Source: Bugula neritina
Taxonomy: Eukaryota > Animalia > Bryozoa
Reading direction: 5' to 3'
DNA length: 64,000 nt
NCBI GenBank assembly: GCA_964035545.1
Contig: OZ037765.1
Location: 22,009,504 to 22,073,503 of the forward strand
The position numbers were made by a program, and so were the translations under genes. A model generated the notes under the pieces. That model saw nothing but the letters and a program-made list of their open reading frames with translations, searched no databases and was not told the origin of the DNA. The number at the start of each line of letters is the position of its first letter. Positions within the stretch are counted from its first letter, which is position 1. Shown here in pieces: positions 13,701 through 64,000 of the stretch.

Positions 13701-13741
13701 CACACACACACACACACCACACACACACCACACACCCCCCA

Positions 13742-13772
<31 letters not shown>

Positions 13773-16700
13773 CACACCACACACAGCTTTCCACTACTTC
13801 ATTATTCTGGTTTTGTGCCAATTCATGTCACACCTATTCATTTTGGATTTGTGTTTGTCACATCTGACAGTTTCATTGAAGTTTTCAATCTAATGACAAG
13901 CAAATAGCATCTTAATGTTACAGAAGTGCTGTAGATTGTTCATTCTGATTATTAATTTTGACTTCACACATCAAACCTGAGTGTATCAAGAAGTTTATCT
14001 CTCTCCTTTGAGATTGTTATCATGTGCACACATTCTCTATTCTGCTGAGTTTCTGTATATAGCCAACAGCTCTTATCTTTCTGATCTCGGCCTCTAAATC
14101 ATTGCTCAGCAATATCTGCACTCTGAAACTGTGCATGAAGCAAAGCTCACAATTTTATACTCTTGCATATTATGATAGTGGTAGACTTTATAGAAAGTTT
14201 GAATTAAAATTATACCTCATTTGGAAATTTAAGTTTGCAGTCTTACTTTTTCCATAACAGTAAACCATGATGCAACTTGCCAGAAAAGTATTGTAAAATA
14301 AAGTATCAAATAAAGATTGTATTGCCTGCTTTAACTTTTGCATTAACTTTGGATGACTGATTGAAAATTGTATTTGACTTGCAACTGCCTTGTATTGTTA
14401 TTGGCAATAGCTGGTTGTAATGGCCAACCTTACTGTGTATTCCATCACTAGATTTATCTGCTAATCTGCGTTTAGATTATCTCTTACTGCACTGCGTGGT
14501 CACACTTGCAACTCAGACTTTTCTAAGGTAAAGTATATTGTTATTGTTGACCGGCTCTCAATCTGACATCTTATACTAGCTGCAAATCCTGAAGAAAGAG
14601 CACCTAGCACACACTTGTCACGATTTCTCAGATACACAACTTTTTAGGTCTCTCCTTTATACACATGGTAATAACTTGTCCTAGTCAGTCTACACACAAC
14701 TGGTCAACACACGCTTATATGTTATCATGGAAATGCTACGCATGCCGGCAGTTGAACTTTATTAAAATAATTTTGTGCCTTCATTTTACAGAAATATAAA
14801 GTGTATTTGGAGTCTTCCCTCTCGGATTCACTGTACGAGTATAAGCAGAATGAAGCGACATTTACAGCCAACGGTGCTTCTGTGGCCTTAACTTTCAATT
14901 TCAATCCTGTAGTAAGTAACACCAATGTCACAATTACAATTCGTGGAAGTTAGAAGTTTTTTTGGCCCACCTTTTCATTTTATGTTATTGCACTAAATTT
15001 TATTTTATTTCAATAAAAAGTGTTTTTCATCGAATATTACGGTAATTATGGCGTAGAAATTTTGTGACATTAGCAACATTATTTCTACATTTATCTATTA
15101 CTTTTTTGATCTTTTTGCGATGTCAAAGTTCCCTATTGTCACAGTCAAATAATTTCTCTTTGAAAAATAAATGACACCAGCATTCCTTTCATCTTGGGAC
15201 CCATATGGCTGCAATATCAGGGTTATTGATCTGTAAATTACGGATTTCATGGAATAAAATATTTTTAAAAAATTTATGTTGTTGGTGTCTTTTTTATTTT
15301 TTGTTTTCTAAATAATAATTTGTCTCTACTATTAAAACAAATTTTACCACAGGATTAGTGAATTCAAAGATTTTGCCCAGTTTGAAGTATTCAGCCTTCA
15401 AAAAGATAAACTTGGTGGCCAAATAGTTGAAGAGTATAAACTGGCTGTATATGTCACTTAATCAAGTTAGATTATGAGATTGTGCACTTGCTTGAATTTA
15501 AATGCATGCATTGTGGCCAGTTCCTTCATCAGCTGGGGTCATTGTGTGCATATCAAATTTTAATCATAAAAATATGTTTTAGATGAAGACAAAGCTAGAA
15601 TTTGACGTGAAGGAAAGCAGTCTGTTGGGACTAGTTGTTGTTATCTGTACAACTGTTATTGTCATCAATAAGGACAAGGTGATACTTAGCCTCTAGTAGT
15701 TTTATTTTAGAAATTTCATCCTCAGCAGTTTATATTATTATAATATCTATATATTTAGACATTTAAGTTTATGCAACTATCAAGATCACCTGCATCATCA
15801 CTTTGCCTTCTCTGTTCTATGTTGTTCCCATTCATATTCAAGACATCTTCACACAGCCAAATGACCTCTTCACTGTCATAGATTAGATTATGGAGAGCCC
15901 TTTGGTAGACTATCAACACATGACGTTACGGCTCATTGCCTACCAGATTAAAATTGAGTGTTTCGGGCTGTTCACAATTGTTTTATACTTGAAAAAGGTT
16001 TTAAATCTTCAATCTTGACTCGGCTGATGCATTTATTTATGGTGTCATCGGCCAAATTGTAGGAAGCTCATTATTTTTAGATAGTTTCTCTAAGTTCTTG
16101 TAATCACGGGCCAGGAAATGTAAGAGGACTTCTCTCTTTCATCTGTAGTTAAAAGCTGAATGGATTTTTTAGAGTGAAAAACTTCATTCACGTGGCATTT
16201 CAGTTTTAAGCCCACACTTTTACCAACACATTTTCTTTAACTGCAAATCCTGGACCATAGGTTCTCTATAGGATTTCTCAAGCAACTCTTTTAAATACAT
16301 CTTGTAGCATTTTTGGCTGCATCATGTTTCGATTTCATAATGTATTTATGATTTGGTCATCATGAGTGTCATATATACCAATTCTAGCTTACCCTAGAGT
16401 TGAACTATTATGAGACAGTCCAAAATTGAGTTTTTTTAAAGGAGACCACAAAACATTGGCGCTGTTTTCATCGATAAATTTACCCATTTAAATAGGTTTT
16501 TTAGTTTAGCTTCAAAATATTTGTAGGGGCAGCTTTAATTACAAATTAATTTGTAGGAAACTTGAATGTCAATGTCTAGTTATTTGGACTACAATAATCT
16601 ACCTACAGGTTGACCAGCACATGAATTTAAACTTGAAATGAGTCACATGGTAGAAAGCCTAGGTGGTCAGCTGTTTACCTACATCAATCATTATCTTTGA

Positions 16701-36402: not shown

Positions 36403-39095
36403 CTATTCCTGGGCTGTTGCTGGCTTCTTTGCTGGACTTGCCTTTCGGGAGGAGACAATCTCTGGCAGCATCCCACTTTTACTAGATTCGGGGATGTCAC
36501 TAACAAACTGGAATCGCTGAAATGATGAGGAATAATTGGTTGATGTATCCATTGGTGGCTTGTTTGGATTTATCTCATACAGGGGACGAAAACTCTTGGG
36601 TGGAGGCTGGAATACTCCTACGAAAAGGAGAGCATAGCTGTCATGCAGCTGCAGCATATTTATAAAGCATCACTTTTATTTGATGTATACATAATATGGC
36701 AATCAAAATGCAGCTTCAACATTTCAATATATATTTTTGCAGCATGCTGTGAATTAGTAGTCAACTAACAAAAGAATATAGTAGGGCATATGTCACATCA
36801 AATAAATGAATGAATCCGGAATGTGGTTGGAATAGAATGACAAATAGATTATGCCATTCTATTTTCATTGGCTTCCCTAGTTGACATAAAAATTGTCTAC
36901 CTTTGAAACGTTCTTGAGATTCAGTTGAACTGTCCATTTTTACACCAGGCTTGATGAATGTAGGCAGTGGTGCATAAGACTTGGGTTTACTTTGAGTTTT
37001 GAAAGTGAAATCATCTTTATAATTAGTTGACATTTCAATATTTTCTTTTCCCAGCTTTAAAGTAGATACCCTTGGTTCATAGCTCACTCTGTCACCAACA
37101 ATGTTCCCATCAGGAAAGTCGTGCTATGAATTCACAAGTATTTCGAAATCATTTGGTGCACATGAACTAACAATCAATTGAAATAAAGTCATGCATTTTA
37201 CCAATGATAGCTCCAAAAGGATATCAGATAACATATTTTCATGTAAAAGCATACAGTCTTAGAATAAGATAAACAACTTTTTTTAGTGGCACACTTGATT
37301 GGGTTGTTAAATTTATCACACCAGTGTCTGCTAGTTTCATTATGATGGCAATTTTGTTGACAAAATTCTGGCCTATTTACTGCTTGAGGATTGATTTGAA
37401 TGAATCAATGTCACAATGCAGTCTAGTATTTAGGGACGTCTCTCATCAAGTGTAATGAATAATGCAGTAGTTCACAATGCTAAGATGATTGCATCACTTG
37501 GTGCCAGGTGTGTACTTGTGTGATGAACTCTGACAGTATGATGTCACTGTGCAACCAGTCTGGGAAAGGAAATGCCTGCATCACTTGTAAACTATCGCTT
37601 GTGTGGGATTAGTGGTTAGTAGGCATTCCCAAACCTACTAGAACTGCCCACTTATTTTGCACCTTATTAGCTAAAGTGGATGCGAAGACTGAAATACAGT
37701 TTTAGTGCATTTTGCAACGTCTAACTGTCAAAATGAGTTGTAAATTTACTTTTCTGGATTTTCCAGAACACCCATGAGAAATTTTCTGCCCTTGTACACT
37801 ATTCTGTATGAATAAACAATGCTTCATGTACATGTAGTGTTCTTATAATCACTAAAATGCTTTAATCTGAATAAGCAGTGAATCTACGGGCTTTTGCTGA
37901 ATTTGAGTAGAAACTTACTGCAAGATAACAAGGAGCTAAATTACTTGAATTCCACTTGTGATTCTAATATCATATTTATTCAATCAGATCATAAAAATTT
38001 ATGATAATTACCAATACTCTCTAATAGTAAGGGATTTGAAGAGAATGCAGTTGAATTCAGTAGACAGCAAAACTCAGCTTTTTCATTTAGGTGCAGTGAT
38101 GGAGAAATTTCAATAGCCTAAGTTCTTTAATTTTCTTGATAAATTTTGGCTTGTGGCGAATTGAAATTATCACAAAAATATCATAACTTCTTTTGCTACA
38201 TTTCTCATCTAGAACACTGGCTTTTCTCAATTTCACCATTACTGCACCCACCTCAGCTTTTGCTGGTCCAATATTTTTACTGTAAATTTACCCGCAACCC
38301 AGTGCTACAGTGTAGGTTTTAGGCTATAGTATGTACTCACTGAGGTTCTCAGGTTATGGACTACAAGCATACTTTTTATATAGCATATTGGCCTCTAGTT
38401 ATAACTAAACTTGACTGCTTAGACGAATTTTTTTCCACAAAACCCGAATGAGCCTTGCAAAATACAATTTATGCAAGACATGTGGCACATGCTTTGAATA
38501 TGACCTAATGAATGTTTTCACAATACGCCAGCATACCAGACAAATTCTCTATTAGTTTACAGGCTGTAAACAGACAGTTTCAATCAAAAAGAGAGTAGAA
38601 TTGGGTCAAGTTGCAACTCGTGATGCTACTTTACTTAGCCAACACATTAAAGCTTAGGTATGAGAACACATGTACCCACAGCAAGGGTCATATTTGATAG
38701 CATAATATTTCCATACATGCGTAGCAGATTCAGGCTCATTGCCAAATCATACATATATCTAAGAGAGGTTTTCGTGACAAGGTCAGTATTAAAAGGTTAG
38801 TAATTGGCCCCATGTCAAGGAGAGCTTCTCATGCATGTATTTCAGTACATTTCAGCTATACTGGGTAATACATTTTCTGTCTTTCAACCCACATTTTTTA
38901 AATAATTTAATGTGAAACTAATCTATATCTGCTTCACCATAGATTTATAGATTGTTTTATAGAATATGCTAGATAGTGTGAACATAGTGCTAATGTTTCT
39001 ATTACTGTAGAATACATATCTGACACCATTGGTATGGCTGCTCAATTAATTCACTTTTAATATAACTATTACTACTACTGCTACTACTACTACTG

Positions 39096-39139
<44 letters not shown>

Positions 39140-42100
39140 GATACTGCTACTACTACTGCTACTACTACTACTGCTACTACTGCTACTACTGCTACTACTG
39201 CTAGTACTGCTACTGCTGCTACTACTGCTGCTACTACTGCTACTACTGCTGCTGCTACTACTACTACTGCTGCTACTACTACTACTACTGCTGCTACTAC
39301 TACTGCTGCTACTGCTACTACTGCTACTACTGCTCCTACTACTAATGCTGCTGCTAATTCTGCATGACATTCATCAATGACACTACTTGACTTTGAAAGG
39401 TTAAAAGACTGAAGTTTATTTGCAGGTTGGAATAGAAAGTAAAGTTAACCACAACTTATTTTGAGGTGAACCTTAAACTTGTTAAAAACATATGGCAGAA
39501 TTTTACCACTGTTACTATCACTACTATAACTACTGTTACCACTGTTACTATTTCTACTATAACTACTGCTACCACTGTTACCATCACTACTATAACTACT
39601 GCTACCACTGTTACTATTTCTACTATAACTACTGCTACCACTGTTACTATCACCACTATAACTACTGCTACCACTGTTACTATTTCTACTATAACTACTG
39701 CTACCACTGTTGAAATGCTATTATCACTGCTACAATCACTAGCTATAGGAAAACACATAGTGGTTATAATTAAAACCATTAGTTACAATCAAAAACTCAA
39801 TTACAGTATCCAATTGTTGCTTAGGCCATCAAAACAAAATGGAAGTTATTTACTCTTGAATAAAAATATTTCATATGGAAAGATAACTTCTAATACATTA
39901 CAAAACCTATAAGCTCCATAGAGGTCTGTCTGCCATGTATACTATTATTCAATGAGATGTTTTACCAAATACTTAGATATAGTAGTCATATACAATGTAT
40001 CAATATATTATATATGTTATATAAAATAGTTTCAAATAAACAGAAAACAAAATGTTGTTCACCATGATAGGTTAGTAAATCGTGTTAACTTGGTGGCAAT
40101 ACCATTGTAGTATAATAACTGATTTAATCTTTATAAACTACTTTATGTTCTAAAAGGATATCATTTTATTACATCGAGTTATAATACAGCAGTAAACTAC
40201 AGCTCATAAAGAGACTGATTGAAATAGTTCAAAACCATTTGAAAGACTAGCTACGATTGAAAAGGCTACTACTGACAATTGTAGGCATTCAACAAGGTGA
40301 AACATATTAATTATTGATTCAATAGATTTTAGTAACTTTCTTAATTCATTGTTAGATATGAATTTTCTTTATAGCCTTACAGGCTTAAAATAATACCCAG
40401 TCTTTGTTAAGATATTAGACTGTTTTAGTAATATGGCCTATATATGTAGCTAACATTCTTTAGATCTGTAGCTATCAATCTTATTGCACACTGTAGTACT
40501 GTAAAATCTAATTACTGGAGTTTTAAATTTTGTGTTATAAACTCTCCCTTATAAAATCCACTCATTTTTACAAATAAAGAAGGACGAATGAGTGTTAACA
40601 TTAGATACCAGTAGCGATGCATGTAACATGGTGCAAGGAAATTTCTATTTCAAACTCCCGCAAAGTAGCTGGAGTGAGTTATTGAAGAGGTGAAATTATA
40701 GGCAATGTTTTCAATTTTAACAGAATAATTAAAATAAAATATTAAACAGGAAATTCATTTTCCTTATAGCAACAAATCAACCTTATAGTATAATAGAATA
40801 TTTACAATTACAGATTCAATCACCTTACTTGTATACAATGATTGCGAGATATAGCGCAACTATTAGTCTGGTCTAAGTCATACATGTATATTATTTTACA
40901 AGACAGTAGTTACTATAGTCTATTGATTTAGTAAGCTAATTTTAAAGAAGCATGCAATGCATGTGAACAGATTTCTACACTTCTTCTTGAGCTGATGTAA
41001 TAAATTTACCAACATCAAATAAGAATCGAAGCAATCTAACAAAATAATGTTTTGACTGCCAGAATTAATGCAAAAAAGGTGGGAAAATAAACAAATAATC
41101 AATTGGCCCAAATACCCACTACTTAAGGTTAAGTGAAATTCATGAGAATATTTAGAAAACTCACTCTGTATGTGCTCTCTGCGTTAGCCATTGGGGTTCC
41201 AGCTTTCTGGGCCTCCAACCAGTTATTCTGTGAATTCACTGTTGAATAAGGCAGTTTCTTTACATCCTTGTATGCTACAAAGTCCTTTTTATTTGTTGTT
41301 TCACAGCTAAACTTTGCCGAAGGTTTTCGATATTGGTAGGATGGGGCGAAACTAAATCAGACAGACAATTTAACTGAATAAGATAACTCATTAGTCATTT
41401 AACCAAAGAACACTGGCAAACAAGTTTAATTAAGCTTGCAAAATTTTCATAACTAGTACAAGAAAACACAATTTACACACACAAAGCACACAACAAGCTT
41501 GAAAATATTATACAATATCTTGGAACAAAAGCAACTAAATATGTAAATAATAAGACACATTTTATGTTGATAATGTGACCATTTATTGACATTTGATTCT
41601 AATCAGATTGGTGTTGATAGGTTCTATTGATTTGGCTATGAGCTATAGATTCTATACACACATGCCAATTATATTCTAACATAAAAATATAGTCCACTAC
41701 AATACAGGACCTTTGAATTAGTTACCTTTTCGTCTTAACAACAGCTCTTTGTACAAAATCTTCTGAATATCCACTGCTACCTTGAAATGTTCCACTCATA
41801 ATATTATTGTCTTTCAGCCTGTAAGCTGCAATTACATGTTATCAATGTGTCAACAGGGTTGACACTTATATTGTTGCTCTGTTAACAACAGCAAAGTAAA
41901 TACAACCAAATGATATTGATAGCAATATTAAAAAGAATTCAAGCTCTGATGAAGGTCTCCTGAATGCTTGAAGTATGTTTATATTATAGATTTGAACTAA
42001 CACTAGTTCACTGATTCTTAGTTCGCAGTTGAAACCAAGCTATTACTCCTAGTAATTATTTATATAGATGTTGAGAAGGTATATGTGTATTGTGTATATA

Positions 42101-47391: not shown

Positions 47392-48584
47392 CAGGGTTGG
47401 GGTCAATTACATGTGAATGTAATTAATTACAATTACAATTACATGAAGATTTGTCAATTACAATTACAATTATAATTACAGTTAAAAGATAATGTAATTA
47501 ATTACAATTACAATTACATGGTGATGTAATTAATTACAATTACAATTACTTTTGTTCTCACAAGGAATAACTAGAAGTTATACAATGTCACTTCTAGGGC
47601 CCAACTACCAGGGGCAATGTTGACAGTGGTGAACCTCCTTTGTTCCCAATAGTGACACTATAAGGTCACTCCATGCCAAATCAACCAAATTTTTAAGGGT
47701 CCCACACCTTTGCTTCTCAGATTTTGCTTATGTTTACACATGTCCGGTGTACTATTCGTGAATATTTCTGACATGACACAAAAACTTTTTGAGAAATGAC
47801 TACATTTGTGAAAAAAGGTTGGGAAAACTTTTGAGGAAAATTTGTGATTTCTACTTTTAGACCAACTTATAAATGTCTATATCTCAACCATTTTTTTTAG
47901 ACTGAGCCTTAAAAATTGATGTGGGAGATATTTAAAAAATTTTCAAAATTTACAAAAATTTACCCATATTCGATGGTTTAGCATATATGTACACAAATTG
48001 TTCTGTAGTATGTGTTGGTACTAGTGCAAGTTGATAGGCATTATTAAATCAAACAGCAAATTTTAAGAGCCTAGAAAAATGGTTGAGATATAGACATTTA
48101 TAAATTGCTCTAAAAGTAGAAGTCACCAATTTTCCTTAAAGTTTTTCCCAACCTTTGTCCACAAATGTAGTAATTTCTCAAAAAGTTTTCTGTCAGGCCA
48201 AAAATATTTAAGAAAAGTACTCAGGACATATGTAGGCCTATAATTTGGTGTAAATATGAATAAACTCTGAGACACAAAGGCACCGGCCATGTGGTGAGTT
48301 AGCATGGAATGACCCTATACTCGTATATTGACTTAATCTGAACTTGTTATTTAACAGTAGATATGGTAGGAAAAGAATGATTTTTTTAAGATTTAAAAGT
48401 TTGAAGTAATTGACATGTAATTATAAAGTAATTGTAAAATTCAATTACATTAGCAATGTAATTAATTACAATTACAATTACAATTACATTTTTATGCATC
48501 AATTACAAATTACATTCAATTACTTGAAAAAATGTAATTAATTACAACCAATTACAATTACAAATTACAATTACCCCAACCCTG
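47392..48584. mobile_element. Non-autonomous hAT-superfamily DNA transposon with subterminal (AATTAC)n arrays
   Basis: 12-bp TIR CAGGGTTGGGGT...ACCCCAACCCTG, with a perfect 8-bp TSD GTACACAG at 47384-47391 and 48585-48592. No ORF. Confidence 0.9.
47663..48315. mobile_element. Foldback MITE nested inside the hAT element
   Basis: Termini AGGTCACTCCATGCCAA and TTAGCATGGAATGACCC, flanked by TATA on both sides. Long internal inverted arms (47781-47900 versus 48071-48189). Confidence 0.8.
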
Positions 48585-48896: not shown

Positions 48897-51800
48897 ATGA
48901 TGAATTCCGTGAAAATCAATTACATGGCAGTGGCTGCCACTTTGACCGTGGTTATCATTTTTATGATGTCATTCTACCATCATCGATCACCAGTATGTAT
49001 GGTTTCTGTAAATAAATAAAAGTAATTATTTGCAGAATATATATGCATTATATATAAAAAGTAAAACTTTTTTCATCTTGCACATTATCAACTTACTAAT
49101 ACTGTTGCTTTGCAAATGATCTGCTTGTTTCGCTATAGTTGTTATAGTAAATTTTTCTATGTATTTTCTTTTATTTTCGGCGATTACGTTCATAAAACAA
49201 GTACATATTAATACTGTTGAACTGCATTTATTTTACTGCTAATGTGTTCCAGGTCTTGACTTTGTATATAGACTGCAGATTTTGATCAAATGTTTTGCTT
49301 TCTTATTGGCTACCCAGAAGATCACAATAGCTGCTTATCTATCATAATCTGCATGTTGCTCAATTAATGCTTGCAGACAGTAAACCTCAGAGAACTTTTA
49401 TCAGCTAGCATTGATCTGGCAGAAAAAGGGGGTCTAAAAACAGTAGAAGTAAAAAAGAAACACAAACTAAATGCCGAAAGTAAAGGCAAAACTAAGGAAG
49501 GTGCTGATGAGATGAAAACTGATGGTGACATGCAGTCACACCGAGCTATTATTGCAGGATTCCATAGAACATTCCCTAGTTTAGCATCCAGGGTTAGTAT
49601 CTTCAAGCACTAAAGATCATAGAAGTTTCATCAAAATTTAGATTTCGTTATAAATTTTTTGAGTTATGAAATCAAACAATGTTGGACTATCATTTATTTG
49701 TTTTAGTAATTGGTTCAATAGACAATTTTCAGAGGTCCCTGATATCCCCTTTATAATTAAGAGTTGTGTCCTCCCAAAGTGAATAGGTTGCACCTTTGTA
49801 TAAAGAGCAAACTCATTAAAAATTTAAAGTTTGGCTGCTACTTAAAATTCTAATTATGCTATAGAATTGTTATTTTAGGAGATAGATATTTTGGTATAAG
49901 CACACATATTAGCAGTTCAAAAATTTTTTTTAAAATATTTCATCATGGATAATTTTGACTAAAATAAACTTTAAAGCATTTTTGTGATTTTGGTTACTGA
50001 GCAATGCTGAAATGGCACTTCAGCATTGCTCAGCAACCAAAACCACAAACATGAGCTCAAGTCTATTTTGCTCAACAAATTTCTTTTGGGAGACCACAAC
50101 TCTTAATTGTAAGGGACCTCTGAAAAGGGTCTATTGATATGACATGTCGCATACTAGTATGATAAACCTTGTAGATTGTATCTGAAGAACACGATAAAAG
50201 GCATGCGTCTGAAGATGCAACAGATGCAAATATTCGCAGACCAGAGACTCAATTGTTGCCTAGTGAGTTTGTTAAAGTCAAGGATATTACTGTATGGGTT
50301 GACCCCCTTGATGCTACACAGGAATATACAGGTATTATACTTTATTAAATAACTTCTGATTTACCTATTTTTACTGTAATAAATTTTTTTGTAATGCATT
50401 GTTAGCGTTACATGAAACCTAATTTATTCTATATTTTGTTGTCTGATACTGTTAGAATGATGCTTTGCAGGAAATCAAGTTTAGACATTAGGTGTTTGTA
50501 ATAAGTGAATGGTATGTCTTTGGCCACTTGGCAATTTTTGTATTATTAGAGAATTTCAGATTTACTGGTGCTTATCAACATAATGTTTTGTACAAATTTC
50601 AAAAATAATTCTAAAATATAAAAAGAAAAAAAATGCCCACCCAAGATATAATTTAGATATCGCTTAATGTTACATGATGCATTCATACCACACCTTTGTT
50701 TTTTTATAACGTAGAGTTTATTTTTTTGGTACAAGTATGTTTATTCTACGTAACTACTGTAATTACGAAGCTTTTTATAAGAAATGCTCTGTGACAGTAA
50801 ATGTTTCATTGTGAAACATTGTGCTATAATTCTTAGTGTATCTTTTATTTACTGTAGAGGATTTGGACCAGTATGTGACAGTGATGATCTGTGTTGCAGT
50901 AAAGGGTAAACCTGTGATAGGAGTTGTTCATAGGACAGAGAAATCTGAGCAATATGATAAAGAAACTAGTGAGTAAATAAAAACCTCTTCTTTTTAAAAC
51001 AACCCAACTTAGTCTCAAAACCAGTGTATTACACACACAGCACTCTTGATTTGTTTTAAATAAAAAATTAGCAGTCATCAGCTTTCACTAAGTACAAAAA
51101 ATGATTTTTACTTAATCGTTCATTTAGAATGTATCTTGTTGCACTTCATGTGATTGCACAACAACATTTTCCTTCTAATTGGCTTTTTTTGTTGGCATAA
51201 TATATCAAAGTTTAACCACATCATTGTAATTTCTCAATGAATATAATGTTTGAGTTCTCATATACATACTACATTATGCAATTGTATTATATTGCAGTGT
51301 GGGCTTGGGTAGGTAATGGAATATCTAATAACTTGGGTGCTATCAAGGATATCACAAAAGCTCCTAAGGATCCTAAAATTATCATATCTAGGTCACATAA
51401 GGGGGATGGAGAAGAAATTGTCAAACAGGCATTTGGTGGTGGTGAGTTGTTCAAAAGATTAGATTATTTCTCCCACCCTTTGTTCAGCTCTTTTATTTAC
51501 CAGTTCATTTATATTCTTTCTCTACTTTTATCAAACAACCTTAAATTTTGCGCTTGCAAATTGTATTTGTATGAAAACTGCTATTAGTTGGTTCCAATAT
51601 ATGTTTACATGTTTTTTAAACTTTCAATTTGATTCTCATTAACTCATAGAGAAGAAAACTGTGCTGTTAGGTTGTTAATTGCATTTCACTCTGTTTCCTA
51701 GGTTGAATCTGTCGAATAAGCTAGGTTTAATATGGATTTTGTAAATTTTTGTGTGTAGGGAAAGTAATTTCTGCTGGTGGTGCAGGCTACAAAGCCATGG

Positions 51801-53723: not shown

Positions 53724-56700
53724 ATGGAAGAATATGATGGAAATGCTAAGCCTCGTGGTAAATGCAATTACTACATGTATACATGTTAAGCCTGATGCAA
53801 TAACTTCAGGGTTATTTAAATTATTACTTATACTTATAGTTATAGATATTACTTATTAATATTAGTATTACACTTTTTACAGCCAGTGTCACAATATGAA
53901 TATGAATATAAATATTGGTATTCATATTGATATTGAATACTTATACTGTAAAAGACTAAGTATTGACTACACAAGTTCAACACAACGACGAAATTGAAGA
54001 CATTTGTCGAACTTTTGACGGTTGAACATAATAATAAAGTTTAACGTTGTCAATTACTGTGTAGATTAAGGTTTAGTAAAACTAATTATCAACATGTATT
54101 TGTTCTGTCGGCTGTTTCGATTCTTTATTTTAAAATTAATGTTCAAATTGAGAAATTTTATCTTAAATTAATTTGATTGGTCTGTAAAATTTAAAGTTAA
54201 TCGTAAACCAATTTTGAATAGTTGATAACTATAAGTATAACTACTACTTTATTTACATTTAACGCCAAACTTAAGCTAAATGAATTTAATAATATTAAGA
54301 ATAATATCTGTACAACTAATCTTTAGAGTAAGACTTAGTTTATGCTTACCCTTAGTGATTGTAACCTACTGTAAGTATATTTAACTTTAGCTTCATGTAA
54401 ATAAAATAATTTTTATTATTATTTGTTGGTTGTGCCACAGCTTTTTGCTGATGTCCTCTCCTAACATTGATCTAGTTCCGCTGGGTCAGATAGGACTTTT
54501 CTCAAGGTGTGAGTTGATCTTAGTAAGGCTGTCTGTTAAATCAATAAATAGTAACATTTAGTATACAATCTTGTATGTAATTTCAAGGGCTTCAATTGAT
54601 ATCAGTACAGTTTTTGTGTATGTTTCCTAAAGATCGGTAAATTCTAATGCAAGCGCCTGATAATTTGCTACCTTTTGTTATTTTTTCTCTGGTACTCGCT
54701 AGGAATAGCGATATATTGAGTATCATTATTTCTGCGTTGCGCTTGCCAACTACTACAGTATCAGGCCTCATAGCTTTGATGATTTGGTTGGTGTGTATGT
54801 TGAAATCTTACAAGATCTTTATATTGTCACTTTCCATAATTTATTTCAAATGGTAGTCGTTTTTATTTCGTGCTTTTTTTCTGAAGTTTGTGGATTCCAC
54901 ACACAACTCTGAGTGATTTATCTCTTTTTATATTTGCCAGGTGCTATTTTTTGCATTCACTAAGTATATGCATCACAATTTTTTTCTTTGCGTTAATTAT
55001 CTGACACTTTTTGCTGCTTTGTTATTTCATTATGATCACCTTGTAAATCTTAGTAGGAGGCGCTTGATTCTCAGCAGCTAACAGTTCCTCTGTTTCCTTT
55101 TTTAGCCGACCAGATCATAACCAGTTTTAAAAATATGTTTTCATTGCTTATGCTTTTTCTATTTATTATTTCTTCCAATCGCTTTGTTTTTCTATAGTGC
55201 TACTTCCAAGTCGTTCAGTATTATGTCTGTATCTATGCCTGTTCTCTTTATTTAATCTGACAACCTTCAGTATCTACACCTTCCTTAATTGACACTGTAG
55301 TGATATGCTTACCTTGGTACTGGTGATATTAAACTTATTAGGTATAAGATTCTAATCCACCAGGTCAGTATGACTTTAGCTTCAAGTTTAAGTTTTAGTT
55401 TGTGAGTATTAGTATGAGTATTGTTATGATTTTCAGATCTAGGGTTGATGTGCTCTCCAGAGAGTCTATTTATTTGCTATAGAACTGCACCAGGATAAGT
55501 CGAGTGAACGAGTATATTTTACACACAATTATACATTATAAAAACGATACATTATATTCAAACAAGTTACACATCTAATCTATTTCACACTCTAGCTTCG
55601 ACTGAGTTAGCAGCGGGAAACTACAATTGCTGCTAACTATCAACTACGCTAATTGGCTATCCATTGTTCCGGGTCAATTACGCGACCCTACATGTTGTGC
55701 TGCTGGTAGTTCCACGAACCACCACACCGCCCCCACCAGCAGAAAGCCATCTTTCTGATATATATATTAAAAAAACATTCATTAGTAACCGCATACATCA
55801 GTGGACAAAAATAACACATAATATACAGGAAGAGACATAATAATAGACAGAGTCATCATAACGATCCGTTGCATACAATTGGCCAGCTGTAGATAGACGA
55901 GGAATACTAGCTAGCTGTGGTGTTAGACAGGGGATAACCTGTTAAGCAGTTAAACATTTGCATGACATCTTGGTTCCTCCCAAGATGTGAAGTTGCGGAG
56001 TATTCTGGGTAGCCAACTAGAGTCCTTGTTGGGCACGCCGGTGCTTGGCTTGGCATGTACGCAGTTTCCGTTTCATACGGCATACGGATCCCTTTAGCTG
56101 GAAGAGTCCTGTTGTAGTGTTAAGTAGATCTGGTGCCAGCTGGGTGAATTCTTCTTGTAATCGCAGGAGGCGTTCTTCTACTGTGGCTAGGCGTACTGGG
56201 TCTGGGGACGGTGTCCGTCTGCGGCGCAAGGGTGGACTGGGGGACCTGGTTCGTCTCTTCGTCGGGGTAGGGGAGATCTCTCCTTCTTCTGGATATGTAA
56301 TTTCCTCGGGGGTGTATGTAATTTGAGGGCGGTCAGACACCAACGGGGATTGTTGGCGGGCGTTGTCTAACACACGTTGGAACCCCGAGGACAGAACGGC
56401 TAACAGCATGGCCCTCTTCACCAGAGGTCGTATAAGTGTGAGGAACTCCGGGTATAGCTTAGCGTCGACCACGTAGTTTTCTCCAGGGAAACAGCCCGTC
56501 GCTCGGTGTCTGGTGACGGGGTAGGGATACACATCATTGTACCCGCAGGGGCAGAATGTTAGTAGGAGATGAGCATTGACGTGTAGTTTAAGGGAGCGGT
56601 GAGAGGCGCAATCTTCACCACAGATCTGGCATCTCGTCCGTCCTCTGGACCCCCAGGCCGTTTCTATTTCTTCTTCTGTTTGTGGAGACACCCACCGCCA

Positions 56701-59700
56701 ACGGCGGCGTAGTGGCTCAGGCCGGTCACCACTAGCATACTCCTCCGGATATGGAGCGGGAAGTGTTCTATCCCGTACCCTGGTTGTAGCGGGTCGAGTG
56801 TATTCTGAAAAAGTTTCAACAGTGTTAATACAGTACACTGCCGTGTTGTCAGCTTGAATAGCTTGGCAACTCCTAATTCAGTTACCTCGTAGAGATTTAT
56901 GGTAGTGAATAGTCAGATAGAACACGTATTGCAATGAGATTATAAAAATCTCTAAGTCAAACTGAGTTCTTACTACGGTATTCCACTAACCTATCTCCAG
57001 CTCGATTGACTCAGTGAGTCAGAGCTGAGCGATGCAATCTAGTTTCGTATTAAGATATAGTTAACTCACCCCACGATCTGTTGTCGTAAGACATACTGAA
57101 TGTGTGAAATGGTTTGAACTACTGCTTAGAAACACGTCTACTCCTGACTGCATCAGCGTATGAAAAGATCGAGCAACGTGGTTGGGGTGCGTGATTAAGA
57201 CTTTGTGCACCCGGCGGATGAATTTTGTTTCTATTTCCGCCGATACAAAAGTTGATATTTCCTTGGTGTTGACAACTCCCACATTTGCTCGATACTTTTC
57301 TCGTACGGTTTTCCCTAGACTTTCATACACGCCGCTTTTAACGCAGTCGCATATGAAGTCCTTCAAGTATGCGGGGGGTTGCCTCGTACGCTGTCCCCTT
57401 TCTAGGGGGGGTGACACGCTTGCCGGTTCGTTAGTAGGGGCCTCTAATGGCGTCTCTACTTCACCGTTAGCGGTCACCTCTTCTTGTTCTCCGGATGGAG
57501 CCCCTCCCTCCGTGGGGGTTTGCACTTCCGGAACCGGTTCGGTTTCTGGAAGTGATGGAATTAGACTTGGCGGTGGCGGACACGCTTCTGTTGACAAAAG
57601 CTGCCGCTCCTCTCTCACCAAGTTTTCTTCCCGCGGTATGACCACTTCGTATTCAGGTCCATGCCGCCGTCGCCCGCGCGTTGTTGTCTGCCTCCTGGGC
57701 TCTAACAACGGGGGGGGGGCTTCTCCCACTCCGTCAGGGCTAGCCCAATACGGTTTCAAGCGAGACTCATTCTGGATAGACACCTGTCCTGAGCGCTCAA
57801 TCTTGTACGTATGATTGGGCATAGCCTCGACGACCACGTAGGGGCCTACGAACTTAGGCTTCAGCTTATCAGCCTGTTCGCGACGCCTACGGTAATTGAC
57901 CATCCACACCTTATCTCCCATTTGATAGAGAGGTGGTTCATCGGAATCTTCGTGCCGCACCTTCCACTGCTGTTGGCGCAGTATATCGTGTGCGGCCTTC
58001 ATCCGTTCCACTAGTTCACTGGCATACTCGTGAACTGAGTTGTCTTGCTCTGGAACGTGATAGGTGAGATGGTCAGGGACACGAGTCTCTCTCCCGAGCA
58101 TCAAGAGGTTTGGGGTCTCACCAGTACTGGTGTGTGGGGTGCTACGGTATGCACGCATGACTTGCGGCAACACCGTATCCCATTCCTCTTGACCTCGTCC
58201 AAGGAGGAGACTCCGGAGTGCATCACCTAGCATCCGGTTGTTGCGCTCCACCACCCCGTTACCTTGAGGGTGGTAGGGGGTGGTCCTGCTCTGATTTACT
58301 CCCCAGAGGCGGCAAAGGTCGCTCATCAGTTGAGACTGGAATTGAGCGCCTTGATCAGAGTGTATCTGTTCGGGGAGCCCAAAATAACAGAATACATGTT
58401 GGTCTAGTGCCCTGGCCACTGTTGGGGCTGATGCATCTGGGATAGCCAGAGCATCCGCCCACCTAGTAAAGTGGTCGGTTAGTACTAGGATCCAATTATT
58501 GCCTCTGGGGGTCAGGGGCATGGGTCCGACCAGGTCTACAGCGACTACTTGCCAGGGCCTACCAGCATATAGCCTCCGCCGTCCTGCTTCACCAGGGGGG
58601 CGGCTATGCTTACTGGCCTGGCAGATCTCACACTGTTTGACTCTGAGCCGGACGTCACGCTCCATTTGTGGCCAATACCACCGGAGTCGTAATTTGGACA
58701 TCACTCTCTTGACCCCTGCGTGGGCCTGTTTGTGAGTATCCCAAATCAACTCGCGGCGGATGGCTGTGGGGCAGACTACCCTCTTCCTTTCCGGGTGTCT
58801 GCCGCTGGCAGCTAGAGAGATGGTTAGCAACCCATCCTGCCCGATCCGCAGCGAGTCCCAACGCTGACAGTATAGCCGGAACTCGGCACATCCCTGTCGT
58901 ATGCGTTCCTCGCTGGGTCGTCGCCCTTCCCTTTTGGCCCGGTATACGTCTGCCACGACTCCAGGCAGCTCTTCTTAGAGCTTCTTCAGCTCTCGAACAT
59001 TACCGGCCAGTACAGGGTTGGCGCGGAGGTTTTGTACATCCTCCGGGGACTCATCAACTCTTTGCCTGAGTTGACCTTGGTCCCAGTCAAACGGTGCTCC
59101 GTGGTGAGCCAGCGTCTCCAACTCGCATCGCGGGGGACCTCCATCCCTCCTCTCGATGTTGAGACACTGTTTGCAACCTCCGTCAGGTCGGCGACTCAAC
59201 CCATCCGCATTGCTGTGTCTCTTGCCCGGTCGATGTTCGATCCGGTATGAGAATTCAGCTAGGATTTCGAGCCACCGGGCGACCTGACTAGAGGGCTCTG
59301 CTCTCCTGCACAACCAGATCAGCGAGGCATGATCCGTACGCAGCCGGAACTTCCTGCCATATAGGTATGGTCTGAAGTGCTTCACTGACTTGATTACTGC
59401 CAGCAGCTCCTTGCGGGTAGTGCAGTAATTTCGTTCAGCGGGTGAGAGAGACTTGCTGTAGTAGGCTACTACTACCTCTCGGCCTTCCTGCACTTGTGAC
59501 AGCACAGCGCCAACATTTTGGTCACTGGCGTCCGTGTCTAGGATGTACTCCAGAGTGGGGTCTGGGTAGGCCAAGATGGGCGCCGTTAGTAGGCAGCCCT
59601 TGAGGCGGTCGAACGCTTCCTGTTCGACTGGGGTCCACTGCCACGTCACTCCCTTTGCGGTGAGCCGGTTTAACGGCTGGGCTATGCCCGCAAAGTCTGG

Positions 59701-62700
59701 TATGTATTGCCTGTAATACCCTACCAGCCCCAAGAAAGCCCGGAGTCCGGTCAAGTCTTGGGGGGTGACCCAGTCTTCTACTGCCCGTACCTTTTCGGGA
59801 TCCGTTGCCACGCCGTTTCGACCGACAACGTGCCCCAGGTACTTGACCTCCGGCTGCAATAGAGCGCACTTGGAAGGTTTGAGTTTAAGACCGGCACCTC
59901 GGAGTCTCTCGAAAACCTCCTGCAGACGACTGACATGTGTCTCGAAGTCTGGAGAGATTACGATGACATCATCGAGGTAGACCAGCAGTGTCTTCCAATG
60001 GAGTCCGCTAAGGACTTGTTCCATCAGCCTCTGGAAGGTGGCTGAGGCGGAGGTTAACCCGAAGGGCAGCACCTTCCACTTCCACAAACCGTCCCGTGTG
60101 ATAAACGCCGCTTTCTCCTGGGCGTCGGGACTCAGAGGAACTTGCCAATAGCCGCTTAGCAAGTCTAACGTACTGAAGTACTTGCTGCCGGCTAGGGCGT
60201 CCAATGACTCGTCAATACGAGGTAGAGGATAAGCGTCCTGTATGGTTACGCTATTGAGCTTGCGGTAATCCACACAGAACCGCCAACTGCCGTCTTTCTT
60301 CCGGACCAGTACGACTGGCGAGCTCCACGCGCTATGGGCGGGCTCTATCAGTCCCCGGTCCAGAAGATCCCGTACTTGTCGGCTAACTTCCTTCTCTTTT
60401 TCCGGCCCCAGCCTGCGTGTGGGCTGCCGGACAGGGACTGTCCCTGCAGTCAGCGGTATTTCGTGCCTGACAACTCCAGTCAGCCCCACGTCATGATCTC
60501 CGCTACTGAACACATCACCGTAGTCGCGTAGCAACTTCGCCATGGCTTGGCGTTCCTTGTTGCTCGCGCAGCCGCCACTGGCTGTTCCGTATAACTCCCG
60601 GAGATGTGTTGGGACTGCCCCTCGTCCCTGAATAGGGCACTGAGGGAGTGCCTCTGTCGCATCACCTAGCGACGGGCCTACGTCTCCCTCCTGAACAGAG
60701 TGAAAACGGCCCAGCATCGACCCAGCCGGGAGCTTGATAGGCTCGGTAAAGGGGTTGACGCACTGCACTAAGATCTCCCCTTGCTCAGTCAACTGATTCA
60801 GACTGCTGGCAAGTTGGATCTTTTCGTGCGCGCCTTCAACCACCCCGAGTCCAGAGATCCGGCTATTATTCACCCTGCAGTGAATGGTAGCCCGGGAGCG
60901 GCCTGGTATGATACGGTTGCGTACCACTTGCACACCTCCCACTAAAGGGCGGCCGAACTTGTCGACGCAGGCGAGTTCCCGCCCGGACATCATCATTGCA
61001 GATCTGCTAAAATCTATGTGACATCCGTGCCGTTTAAGGAACGGCATCCCGAGGATAGCATCCTCCTTGAGCTGACTGACGATGAACGTCTCTTGGATCG
61101 TTTGATCACGGACTCGTCCCGTCAGCTCAATTATACCATAGAAGGGAAGGCACGACCCGTCAGCTAGGGTGCCGTATTCCCCTTCGTATGATTCCATTTC
61201 GCCCCTGACCCTAGCACTGAGGGTGTCGAAGAGTTGGCGGCTTAAGAGGTTTGTGGTACAGCCCGAATCAATGAGGAAAGTAACAGCTTTGCCTTCCAGT
61301 TTACCGGGCAAGAAATAGCTGTTCCCATGGGGCTGCACCTGAACTCTCTCTCTTCAGGCCCTACTCTCGCAGGGAGTACCTCCCTCGCTTTGGGTCGCGA
61401 AGGAGGTCTCTTGGGGCGGTGGTAGGTAGGCCTCGGGGGTGCCGAGGTTAGATCCTCGGCTACCTTTGTGGGCTCCCATCCAGATTCTTGGACTCGTAGC
61501 CCTGTGAATCTGTTGTGAAGGGGCATAGAAAAGGCAGCCGCGGGGCGAAGCCCCTTGCTGGTCCGTCGTGGCTGTTGCCACTGTTGGTTGCCAGTACGCG
61601 ATACCCGTCTGGGTGACCTGCGTTTCTTCTTCCCTGGGGGTTTCATCGTCGGCCCGCAAGAGGTGGGAACATCTGCGGGCCGCGGTAGTTTAACCCCTGA
61701 TTTAGGAAGGGACAGTATCGGCGGAAATGCCCTTGATTTCCGCACTCCCAGCAAAAACTGACTGTTTCTCCCTGTGGCGGCGCCGATGGCCGCATGGGCT
61801 CAGGGGCGGTACTCACTGGGTTTTGTGGTGTCAGTGTTGCTATCAGCTTGGCTAGCATGTCTGTCAGTTGAGTGACTTTCGATGCCGTCGCCAACTGGGA
61901 CACGGCAGCCGCGGCGGGGGTTTCCTCCCCTTGTCCCGCGGCCGTGTCTGCGCGGTCTATCTCCACTTGACGGGAGCTTCCGCGACTTTTATGCATTTGA
62001 TTAGCTAGGAGGTAAGCTTCCCCCTCAGTCAGAGCATCTTCAACGGTGGTGACTCCCCTAGCTAGAAACTGGTGGTGGAGACCCAGATCGTCGACAGATG
62101 CTATGAAAGCGTCGAGGGTATACCTCTCGCGGTTGACTGGGGGCAAGTCGCTGTACGCGATCTGTGCCAGCTTCATGACCGCGGCGGCATGCTCCCGCAG
62201 CGGGGTGCGGGGATCACGCCGCAACCTCTGCAATCGGGCCCTGGCATCTGTAGCAGAGAGGCCGAAGCGGGCCCGCAGAGAAGCAAAGATATTATCAATG
62301 TCTACGCCCAGCCCATAAGGCTTGGCTTTGTCCATCAATGCCATTCTAAGCTTCAGCAAGGCCACCCTAGGGGGCCACTGGGCGACGTCCATTACGTCAC
62401 TAAACTCTTGGATAAATTGTTCCACCTCCTCTTCACCCGTGAAGGTGGGCGCCTTTAACCGGTAGCGTTCCTTAGTTAGTTCTCGCGGAACCCTTCGCTC
62501 TTCTACTACATGGTTAACAGGCATTGTCTCTACAGCATTGTCTCTACGCTCACCTTCTATTGCCGGTGGTTGAGTTCCAGCATTTTCAGTCTCCATCTTG
62601 GATGCACTATCCCACTGCTGCCACCACTGTTATGATTTTCAGATCTAGGGTTGATGTGCTCTCCAGAGAGTCTATTTATTTGCTATAGAACTGCACCAGG

Positions 62701-64000
62701 ATAAGTCGAGTGAACGAGTATATTTTACACACAATTATACATTATAAAAACGATACATTATATTCAAACAAGTTACACATCTAATCTATTTCACACTCTA
62801 GCTTCGACTGAGTTAGCAGCGGGAAACTACAATTGCTGCTAACTATCAACTACGCTAATTGGCTATCCATTGTTCCGGGTCAATTACGCGACCCTACATG
62901 TTGTGCTGCTGGTAGTTCCACGAACCACCACAGTATCACTGTGTTCGTAGCCCACAACCTTGGTCCCAGTCTCTTGTCAGTCTCTAAGTATAACGTCAGT
63001 TAATATTTGAGTTATTAGTTAGTAGGTGTATGCTCAAGTACTAGTAAAGGATTTGTTTCAATTAGTATAAGTATCTCTTATGAATTTGTTCACTCTTTAT
63101 CAATCTCAATCTTCTTTCGTTCTCTCCATGCTCATTTCCTATTTCTTTTTTATTAATTTACAAATAAAGAACAGATAACTCCTTGGTATACACTTCAGAC
63201 ACTATTTGTCTGCTGCCTTCCTTCCTGCCAATACACAGCCTGTTTAAATCACCATCATTATCATTAGTATCATTATTATAATTATATACTAAAGCTAATA
63301 TATTTTGCAGCATTTTCATTTTTTGAAAAGTGTTGAATCCTTGCATAAATTACGTAATTTATAATAAGGCCAGCCAGAAATTTTGTTTTTATTGTCAGTG
63401 CTCTGTATCTTTAAAACTGTCTTAATATTAAAGTTTATTTATGGGGTTTTTAAGAGCCAAGAAAGAAGCTGAAGAAGAAAAAGTCACCAGCAAAAGAAGA
63501 ACTTTTACCTGATCCGCAAGAAAACATTATTGGTTAGTTCAACTAGTAATTTATAGCAGTTACTTAGAAGTGATGACTATAAGCTCATCAAAAGGTTCTA
63601 CTGTGCAAATTTGCAAGTTTTTTCAGTTTTAACAATAGATAACTTTACATGCATGCATACTGTTAATTTATTAAGCTGCTAACCTTTACAGCTATAAAAG
63701 TATTGCACTTTTGTCAAATAAGCTATTGTGAAGAAATATAAAAAGTTAAATATAGCAATATGCGTTGACACTCATGTTTTGCTTTCTGCGGAGATATTAC
63801 CAATATTACATCAACTTGTCATAATTTTTTTAAAGCATAATATTGTTACACTTGTTTTTGCTTGAATTATAATACTGTACGTATTTGGCAATCACTACTA
63901 ACCATTATAATATATTATGTGTTTTACAGCAGCCAACAGCATAAAAAAATCTACAAAGGCAACTTTTGATTTGTATTTAGAGCAAGCTCAAGCAAATATT
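53724..64000 (+). CDS. Probable 5' exons of an unidentified host gene continuing beyond the window
   Basis: Candidate exons 53724-53757 (ATG in ACAATGG context), 63455-63532 and 63930-64000 join in phase 1 with GT/AG ends. They give an open frame MEEYDGNAKPREPRKKLKKKKSPAKEELLPDPQENIIAANSIKKSTKATFDLYLEQAQANI. No homology recognised. Confidence 0.45.
54410..55330 (-). mobile_element. Decayed 3' end of an RLE-type non-LTR retrotransposon (R4/Dong-like)
   Basis: Broken frames give LKKETEELLAAENQA, VMHILSECKK, MESDNIKIL*DFNIHTNQIIKAMRPDTVVV, IAIP and YQALALEF. These resemble the CCHC and PD-(D/E)xK restriction-like endonuclease region. The element ends in a short (TAA)n tail near 54412; its 5' limit is approximate. 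Confidence 0.7.
55422..55726 (-). repeat. 3' LTR
   Basis: No difference from 62628-62932 found by eye. AATAAA on the minus strand at 55469-55474. Confidence 0.97.
55727..55737 (-). promoter_or_regulatory. Polypurine tract
   Basis: GGTGGGGGCGG on the minus strand directly abuts the 3' LTR. Confidence 0.8.
56017..56804 (-). CDS. Retrotransposon ORF3 main exon: zinc-finger / basic SP-rich / coiled-coil protein, not env-like
   Basis: The open frame contains C-x2-C-x12-H-x3-H and C-x-C-x12-H-x4-C (56631-56491), KRRTRSPSPPLRRRRTPSP and a 43-residue heptad repeat (56190-56062). There is no ATG upstream of the fingers; the acceptor ACTTTTTCAG| ends at 56805. Confidence 0.8.
57061..58974 (-). CDS. 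pol, integrase portion (same frame as RT, separated by one TAA)
   Basis: HHCC (HKQAH...CEIC), DDE (VAVDLVGP, HSDQGAQF, VERNNR), GPY/F module (PKFVGPY) and RTRQPPAYLKDF tail motif. Confidence 0.95.
   Translation of the reverse strand, partial: EELPGVVADVYRAKREGRRPSEERIRQGCAEFRLYCQRWDSLRIGQDGLLTISLAASGRHPERKRVVCPTAIRRELIWDTHKQAHAGVKRVMSKLRLRWYWPQMERDVRLRVKQCEICQASKHSRPPGEAGRRRLYAGRPWQVVAVDLVGPMPLTPRGNNWILVLTDHFTRWADALAIPDASAPTVARALDQHVFCYFGLPEQIHSDQGAQFQSQLMSDLCRLWGVNQSRTTPYHPQGNGVVERNNRMLGDALRSLLLGRGQEEWDTVLPQVMRAYRSTPHTSTGETPNLLMLGRETRVPDHLTYHVPEQDNSVHEYASELVERMKAAHDILRQQQWKVRHEDSDEPPLYQMGDKVWMVNYRRRREQADKLKPKFVGPYVVVEAMPNHTYKIERSGQVSIQNESRLKPYWASPDGVGEAPPPLLEPRRQTTTRGRRRHGPEYEVVIPREENLVREERQLLSTEACPPPPSLIPSLPETEPVPEVQTPTEGGAPSGEQEEVTANGEVETPLEAPTNEPASVSPPLERGQRTRQPPAYLKDFICDCVKSGVYESLGKTVREKYRANVGVVNTKEISTFVSAEIETKFIRRVHKVLITHPNHVARSFHTLMQSGVDVFLSSSSNHFTHSVCLTTTDRGVS
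58975..61353 (-). CDS. pol: aspartic protease, reverse transcriptase, RNase H
   Basis: Protease FLIDSG; RT SPVVLVRKKDGSWRFCVDYRKLN, LPFGL and YLDD; RNase H DTDAS, ELLAV, RTDH and NADGLSR. Confidence 0.97.
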   Translation of the reverse strand, partial: RERVQVQPHGNSYFLPGKLEGKAVTFLIDSGCTTNLLSRQLFDTLSARVRGEMESYEGEYGTLADGSCLPFYGIIELTGRVRDQTIQETFIVSQLKEDAILGMPFLKRHGCHIDFSRSAMMMSGRELACVDKFGRPLVGGVQVVRNRIIPGRSRATIHCRVNNSRISGLGVVEGAHEKIQLASSLNQLTEQGEILVQCVNPFTEPIKLPAGSMLGRFHSVQEGDVGPSLGDATEALPQCPIQGRGAVPTHLRELYGTASGGCASNKERQAMAKLLRDYGDVFSSGDHDVGLTGVVRHEIPLTAGTVPVRQPTRRLGPEKEKEVSRQVRDLLDRGLIEPAHSAWSSPVVLVRKKDGSWRFCVDYRKLNSVTIQDAYPLPRIDESLDALAGSKYFSTLDLLSGYWQVPLSPDAQEKAAFITRDGLWKWKVLPFGLTSASATFQRLMEQVLSGLHWKTLLVYLDDVIVISPDFETHVSRLQEVFERLRGAGLKLKPSKCALLQPEVKYLGHVVGRNGVATDPEKVRAVEDWVTPQDLTGLRAFLGLVGYYRQYIPDFAGIAQPLNRLTAKGVTWQWTPVEQEAFDRLKGCLLTAPILAYPDPTLEYILDTDASDQNVGAVLSQVQEGREVVVAYYSKSLSPAERNYCTTRKELLAVIKSVKHFRPYLYGRKFRLRTDHASLIWLCRRAEPSSQVARWLEILAEFSYRIEHRPGKRHSNADGLSRRPDGGCKQCLNIERRDGGPPRCELETLAHHGAPFDWDQGQLRQRVDESPEDVQNLRANPVLAGNVRELKKL
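61354..61688 (-). CDS. Gag-Pol transframe linker (-1 frame relative to gag; part of ORF 61242-61754)
   Basis: Reached by a -1 shift at GTTAAAC. Basic, Pro-rich sequence containing PLHNRFTGL. It would join the protease frame if one GA unit were removed at 61344-61353. Confidence 0.6.
61643..62596 (-). CDS. gag, 317 aa
   Basis: ATG 13 nt after the PBS; capsid-like PTFTGEEEVEQFIQEF; zinc knuckle CWECGNQGHFRRYC. Confidence 0.93.
   Translation of the reverse strand: METENAGTQPPAIEGERRDNAVETMPVNHVVEERRVPRELTKERYRLKAPTFTGEEEVEQFIQEFSDVMDVAQWPPRVALLKLRMALMDKAKPYGLGVDIDNIFASLRARFGLSATDARARLQRLRRDPRTPLREHAAAVMKLAQIAYSDLPPVNRERYTLDAFIASVDDLGLHHQFLARGVTTVEDALTEGEAYLLANQMHKSRGSSRQVEIDRADTAAGQGEETPAAAAVSQLATASKVTQLTDMLAKLIATLTPQNPVSTAPEPMRPSAPPQGETVSFCWECGNQGHFRRYCPFLNQGLNYRGPQMFPPLAGRR
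62609..62626 (-). promoter_or_regulatory. Primer-binding site, tRNA-Leu
   Basis: TGGTGGCAGCAGTGGGAT begins 1 nt inside the 5' LTR boundary. It is complementary, with one mismatch, to the 3' end ATCCCACCGCTGCCA-CCA of animal tRNA-Leu(AAG/TAG). Confidence 0.85.
62628..62932 (-). repeat. 5' LTR
   Basis: 305 bp, TG...CA ends, matching 55422-55726. Confidence 0.97.

Follow-up and report, generated by a model that had tools for sequence, protein, structure and literature searches.

How can the third open reading frame (ORF) of a retrotransposon be translated in full when its first in-frame ATG lies well inside it, and what might its product do? This question is raised by a complete Ty3/Gypsy long terminal repeat (LTR) retrotransposon found on the minus strand (62932-55422) of a 64,000-nucleotide (nt) stretch of Bugula neritina DNA (contig OZ037765.1 of assembly GCA_964035545.1, positions 22,009,504 to 22,073,503), referred to here as the window. 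In the interval that separates pol from the 3' LTR this element carries ORF3, whose first in-frame ATG (56409) appears only beyond both zinc sites of the predicted protein and is preceded by five out-of-frame ATGs. A preliminary description of the locus proposed that the gag start codon is spliced in frame onto ORF3, as in an env-style subgenomic message. The sequence of this copy, taken together with the proteins of its relatives, makes it highly probable that the join is made by splicing and that it is used by this subfamily of elements.

Probable splice sites linking gag to ORF3

All features of the element are given on the minus strand. Coding exon 1 (62554-62596) begins with the gag ATG (62596-62594) and comprises 14 codons and one further nucleotide, ending in phase 1 at the splice donor AAG|GTGAGC (62548-62556), which reads E-G-E in the gag frame. 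The predicted intron (56805-62553) measures 5749 nt, and its removal would eliminate pol entirely together with the greater part of gag. At its far end the acceptor TTTTTCAG| (56805-56812), which reads F-S-E in the ORF3 frame, requires phase 1 because two bases stand before the first full ORF3 codon (56802), and coding exon 2, corresponding to ORF3 (56017-56804), supplies 261 full codons and the stop. Each site that the preliminary description had listed was found again: the GAAG|GTGAGC donor, reached after 43 coding nt of gag, with the exon ending at 62554 and the intron starting at 62553; the branch-like ATTAAC ahead of ORF3, which is part of TATTAAC at 56830-56824; and an acceptor ending at 56805 whose phase agrees with that of the donor. 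The claimed length of the joined product, 276 amino acids (aa), is confirmed by arithmetic. With a generic splice-site matrix, whose frequencies are approximate, the donor ranks 1 among the 437 GT sites of the element. The acceptor ranks 22 among 582 AG sites under a long pyrimidine-tract model and 1 of 582 under a short-tract model that was picked after the site had been seen. At the acceptor the GC fraction rises from 0.37 on the intron side to 0.61 on the ORF3 side.

Conservation of the donor and its phase across the family had been put forward in the preliminary description as a check on the splice, and it was scored on proteins, not DNA, in the 68 gag sequences with a start Met and the donor column (gag homologues being the best 120 of 130). 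A phase-1 GT donor is compatible with 65 of these 68 gags. E16 is present in all 68 and G15 in 60 of them, and the substitutes for G15 are mostly S or D, matching the expectation for a GGY codon. Mean identity reaches 0.88 in gag columns 14-16, as against 0.40 before them, 0.32 after them and 0.65 in the Gag core, and the donor motif occurs in all 23 gag clusters (80% identity), with an exon 1 mainly 10-14 codons long. On the ORF3 side 55 close homologues and 105 matches among 50%-identity representatives were retrieved. Among the 54 close ORF3s aligned, 24 reach past the acceptor. Of these, 21, this copy included, display the signature [FLI][SL][DEG], as would be encoded by TTTTCAG or TTAG with the phase unchanged; it is lacking in P0028 and in two sequences whose N-termini are unrelated. 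Relatives that keep donor and acceptor in phase include some whose Gag cores are as low as 40% identical. Four of the 20 distant ORF3 relatives are clusters named by species, two from Watersipora subatra and two from Bugula neritina.

The joined product can be recognized in one relative. P0028 is a JGI protein of 261 aa encoded on one 5320-nt contig; its residues 1-14 are identical to residues 1-14 of the gag P0112, ending right before G-E, and from residue 15 onward it aligns with the ORF3 relative P0033 starting exactly at the acceptor codon of the latter. It is the sole gag-ORF3 join encountered when 159 ORF3 homologues were compared with 121 gags, the next-best exact prefix being 4 residues. 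Judged from these alignments, P0028 is the product of the proposed splice in one open frame, and the claim that the gag ATG is spliced in frame onto ORF3 is thereby upheld in a sibling protein as well as by the conservation of both sites. Putative initiator and polyadenylation motifs lead to an expected spliced RNA of ~1.6 kb; since the P0028 contig exceeds this length, it probably represents a retrotransposed spliced copy, possibly a mini-element encoding the ORF3 product only.

Several observations count against the splice and have to be weighed. AGGTRAG is found once in the element versus 1.42 times expected, that is, at chance level, and TTTTCAG once versus 0.21. Motifs as good as these would turn up by chance in a sequence of 7.5 kb, so the sequence alone is no proof of a splice; what stands above chance is the position of the sites, their conservation in relatives and the joined protein of one relative, not the motifs themselves. 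The conservation of G-E might alternatively reflect a protein-level constraint. P0028 is only 54% identical to this ORF3 and is known from the protein alone, and the family also includes deletion-type fusions, one of gag with RT (P0063) and one of integrase with gag (P0179). A deletion fusion that strikes both predicted codons is nevertheless improbable, at a rough estimate of less than 1 in 1000. RNA run X1 returned 0 joints from 21 aligned contigs, with the sites almost uncovered and 56802-57068 without any cover; it contains 0.16 of the words and is uninformative on the junction. The predicted junction is also absent among the best 15 of 53 joints for the two runs, X1 and X2.

An own Met shortly after the acceptor exists in 16 of 20 ORF3s, and many have one just before it, so that the gag ATG would be dispensable in some subfamilies; dependence on an upstream ATG is confined to the present one (P0001, P0005, P0006, P0045). 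This proximity of Met to the acceptor speaks for the alternative that ORF3 is reached through an internal start, or else through a local mini-exon (57070-57094, 25 nt, own ATG, phase 1) and a 265-nt AT-rich intron, with P0028 arising from a chance deletion. The donor of that mini-exon (57069) is the second-best of the element and also in phase 1. Nonetheless, this alternative is considered very unlikely: the breakpoints of P0028 coincide with both predicted codons, the gag donor is conserved, the mini-exon has no known or evident promoter, a transcript of three exons starting at the gag ATG would lose the frame, and structure prediction hides the 57069 donor in a long stem but leaves the region around the gag donor unstructured. 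The mini-exon may constitute a minor isoform.

The ORF3 protein and its possible function

At the protein level, AlphaFold predicts a compact 120-residue module, then a proline-rich linker without order and finally a helix of 58 residues; the core alone is modeled with a predicted local distance difference test (pLDDT) score of 94 and a predicted template modeling (pTM) score of 0.87. The module (56350-56712) is helix-wrapped and combines two zinc sites, a C2H2 (C58 C61 H74 H78) and a C-x-C...H...C (C84 C86 H99 C104), and all eight ligands are retained in 68 of the 97 members that cover them. Finger 1 fits C-x2-C-x12-H-x3-H and falls under the Pfam cut-off; its profile matches are C2H2 transcription factors, the best one being SALL3 (E 6e-6). 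The second site follows C-x-C-x12-H-x4-5-C, with no further canonical C2H2 finger in the protein. The inter-finger linker consists of five mostly hydrophobic residues and is not TGEKP-like. Helix positions 2 and 5 carry R/K, and position 6 is hydrophobic in most members, unlike Kruppel. The C-terminal helix (56026-56199) shows strict, conserved 3-4 heptads and ends in an Arg/Lys-rich stretch, a basic tail with 6-9 K/R being present in 39 of 42 members. Foldseek against PDB and viral models gave no match at E 0.001, and VIA-align of the whole model retrieved generic helices only (Z up to 6.5), the best score for the core being Z 3.6. In the ESM Atlas the whole protein stays below 0.9 and the core reaches 0.95-0.96 with unnamed clusters. 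These fold searches leave no clear known fold for the model, yet do not establish a new one. Taken over Pfam, PDB sequences and folds, the only resemblance obtained is a weak one to C2H2 fingers. The two-zinc module was also observed in annotated bryozoan proteins (P0187/P0278, P0234 of Watersipora subatra, and P0286 and P0287 of Bugula neritina), some of them with two tandem module copies, which may stem either from host genes or from ORFs of transposons. Fusions that extend ORF3 to a length of 658-2000 aa were sought and none came up, which is weak evidence.

The intron RNA is predicted to fold more stably than its dinucleotide shuffles, with a mean z of -2.16 over 38 windows and 19 of them at z <= -2, a level attained by one of 11 retained-exon windows and two of 29 host-flank windows (intron versus exon and flank, Mann-Whitney p 0.002, the windows not being independent of composition). 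Close to the acceptor a predicted 9-bp hairpin (56817-56843) places TATTAAC in its loop, with the putative branch A (56825) atop the stem. The read-through peptides of several relatives (S-V-Y...L-H-C) fit the 56843-56817 stem, by back-translation only. Hairpins at the 3' end of the intron (z -2.3) were dropped as a candidate response element, since the folding excess spans the whole intron.

Taken together, these features suggest a regulatory loop. In a spliced subgenomic mRNA, ORF3 would follow directly on the opening 14 codons of gag, and the 276-aa protein would result. Splicing would operate by default, since no other donor of the element is as strong, and the small mRNA would yield the ORF3 protein; with the strongest donor located inside gag, the full-length RNA must evade both splicing and nuclear retention. 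The ORF3 protein would multimerise via its heptad helix, its zinc module and basic tail would bind the structured intron RNA, and the bound protein would allow the full-length RNA to be exported, translated and packaged. It is thus proposed, tentatively and at not quite an even chance, that the ORF3 protein acts as a nuclear factor of the type of Rev or of CERV from the Cer1 element, freeing the unspliced gag-pol RNA for export. Such a loop is favored because the intron is predicted to fold beyond its shuffles and the branch-like motif to sit in a hairpin; the position and gag-shared start that ORF3 has in common with CERV also count for an export role, as do the basic tail, the conserved heptads and a finger linker and helix position 6 that differ from those of Kruppel. 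Other results tell against it: no class 1 export-signal pattern was found outside the folded module, the opposite strand of the intron also has a mean z of -1.41, and gag-pol might display such an excess of folding in general. Moreover, the two fingers can be superposed, though weakly, on tandem C2H2 pairs in their DNA-bound state (Z 3.0-3.6, ~50 residues, root-mean-square deviation 2.5-3.0), which suits DNA binding at least equally.

This last resemblance makes a DNA-binding activator or anti-silencer a close rival. In that case the same splice would produce a dimeric or trimeric zinc-finger protein that sits on the LTR and activates transcription or counters silencing, a possibility to be taken seriously although it is not judged likely. 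It draws on the match of finger 1 to C2H2 transcription factors, on a tandem geometry like that of the Kaiso, SALL4, ZBTB38 and CTCF pairs and on the R/K that helix positions 2 and 5 carry, and it is weakened by the presence of only two fingers, the short hydrophobic linker, the mostly hydrophobic position 6, the atypical second site and structural scores under the level of a trusted match. That the same spliced product works later in the cycle, accompanying Gag or integrase either to chaperone nucleic acids like LINE-1 ORF1p or to target integration, seems unlikely: coiled coil, basic tail and zinc module form a generic nucleic-acid-binding layout, but nothing was found that ties the ORF3 protein to particles, and it would lack a capsid domain because just 14 unstructured residues are common with Gag. 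That ORF3 could be a degenerate Env or a small fusogen conferring infectivity, as its env position and heptad helix might indicate, is hardly credible. Its 19-residue hydropathy maximum is 1.47, so that no 19-mer reaches 1.6 (a value attained by 8 of 116 members), neither a signal peptide nor a transmembrane anchor is detected by hydropathy (a dedicated predictor was not applied), the exon from gag has a polar character, unlike a signal peptide, and no Env match, F-type and gB-type included, is listed in Pfam, PDB or viral models. According to this predicted domain anatomy, ORF3 is a non-Env zinc-finger/coiled-coil protein, in support of the preliminary proposal that env-style splicing is used here for a non-env product.

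The element, this copy and the rest of the window

The retrotransposon is bounded by two identical LTRs of 305 nt with TG...CA ends, the 5' LTR at 62628-62932 and the 3' LTR at 55422-55726 (AATAAA at 55474), and a 4-bp target duplication, ATAC, lies at both flanks. The primer-binding site TGGTGGCAGCAGTGGGAT (62609-62626) begins 1 nt after the 5' LTR and is presumably of the tRNA-Leu type, and a purine-rich, polypurine-tract-like sequence (55727-55737) adjoins the 3' LTR. The gag gene (61643-62596) encodes 317 aa with a weak C-terminal zinc knuckle, and the pol region (57061-61799) encodes protease, reverse transcriptase (RT), RNase H and integrase (HHCC, core and SH3-like parts); Pfam matches to gag and then to the pol domains in that order correspond to the Ty3/Gypsy arrangement. 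A 185-codon frame (61799-61242) overlaps the end of gag in the -1 frame, and GGGTTAAAC near 61695 is likely the gag-pol frameshift site. Pol is interrupted twice in this copy, the frame changing near 61350 and a stop occupying 58977-58975. In run X2 nearly all the depth departs from the window at the position of the stop, and near 57312 most of it differs in length by 1 nt (among the best 40 of 727 variant rows); because the X2 depth mostly differs there, the interruptions look like a peculiarity of this copy or of its assembly. Alignment of run X2 with 55200-63200 of the window gave 6226 contigs in every identity band and therefore the element family appears large and diverse in that sample. 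Rfam produced 0 matches within the element, and locus scans disclosed no relatives in metagenome contigs (scanned with alignments of ORF3 and of gag), viral contigs or prokaryote genomes.

Elsewhere in the window, a 376-codon open frame on the minus strand (19419-18289) combines an Ets domain with a long Q/S-rich tail and corresponds to an exon of a host Ets transcription factor. Tandem repeats are located at 39010-39900 (~9-nt units), 11843-12302 (23-nt units) and 13588-13794 (a CA-rich run), and inverted repeats resembling miniature inverted-repeat transposable elements at 47781-48189 (115-nt arms, 91%) and 49748-50115 (43-nt arms around a 60-nt palindrome).

Relation to known systems

In the C. 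elegans Ty3/Gypsy element Cer1, CERV is a spliced, gag-initiated, non-Env ORF3 that is needed for export of the genomic RNA (PMC10309623). The splice strategy is therefore not new, CERV having been overlooked in the preliminary description. Like the element studied here, Cer1 has a non-Env ORF located after pol and ahead of the 3' LTR, with a start in the gag frame and a spliced mRNA, both of these being probable here, and both proteins contain a cysteine-rich zinc site, a helical zipper and a basic patch. CERV is described as a protein of 517 aa from five exons with H/M/G-protein-like domains and a C4 loop, in nematodes only (PMC10309623); the ORF3 product, compared by description, would instead have 276 aa, two exons, C2H2 and C2HC sites and a C-terminal coiled coil. 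The export function has been demonstrated for CERV and is inferred for the ORF3 protein.

In the idefix subclade of Drosophila errantiviruses the main exon of the Env ORF3 is spliced from within gag (PMC12992720; bioRxiv 10.1101/2023.08.03.551782), and a splice from inside gag would likewise discard gag-pol here; in contrast, the idefix product, Env-F, is a glycoprotein that possesses a signal peptide, a furin site, a fusion peptide and a transmembrane anchor, whereas ORF3 gives no evidence of any of them. The LTR retrotransposons of bdelloids carry non-Env ORF3s (GDSL esterase, DEDDy exonuclease, and coiled-coil (CC) and transmembrane (TM) proteins) and resemble the present case as elements of the lophotrochozoan side with captured non-Env ORF3s and typically spliced messages (PMC5408684), but their proteins are different and the word zinc has 0 occurrences in that paper. 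Small ORFs of the MDG1 group are reported to be unspliced (PMC11952523), and the bryozoan elements described with env have a gB-type Env and the order gag-env-pol (PMC13524379). Rev, Rex and Rec are, like the putatively oligomerising ORF3 protein, small, basic, oligomerising regulators made from a spliced mRNA (PMC10309623). Their leucine-rich export signal has no clear counterpart in ORF3. To our knowledge, they have no zinc fingers.

Within the literature searched, what is new is the protein family and its exact splice; neither this ORF3 family nor bryozoan elements carrying it are described there, Repbase, Dfam, supplements and most subscription journals lying outside the search, so that a prior annotation is possible. 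A broader picture is speculative and rather doubtful: a bryozoan Ty3/Gypsy lineage might have independently become "complex retrovirus-like" by capturing a zinc-finger module, giving it the gag ATG through splicing and using it as a Rev-type switch that reads the structured gag-pol intron, with spliced mini-copies that retrotranspose and act in trans and hosts that carry genes with the duplicated module.

The export of unspliced RNA is understood in few env-less LTR retrotransposons, and most of the extra ORFs found at the env position have no function assigned. The ORF3 family is a candidate for a second, apparently unrelated regulator of the CERV/Rev type, and it offers an exact splice, a two-zinc domain that is undescribed but modeled with confidence, and copies of young age. 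Should its product turn out to be a DNA-binding activator or anti-silencer, it would still be a regulator encoded by the element itself, a kind rarely shown in animal retrotransposons.

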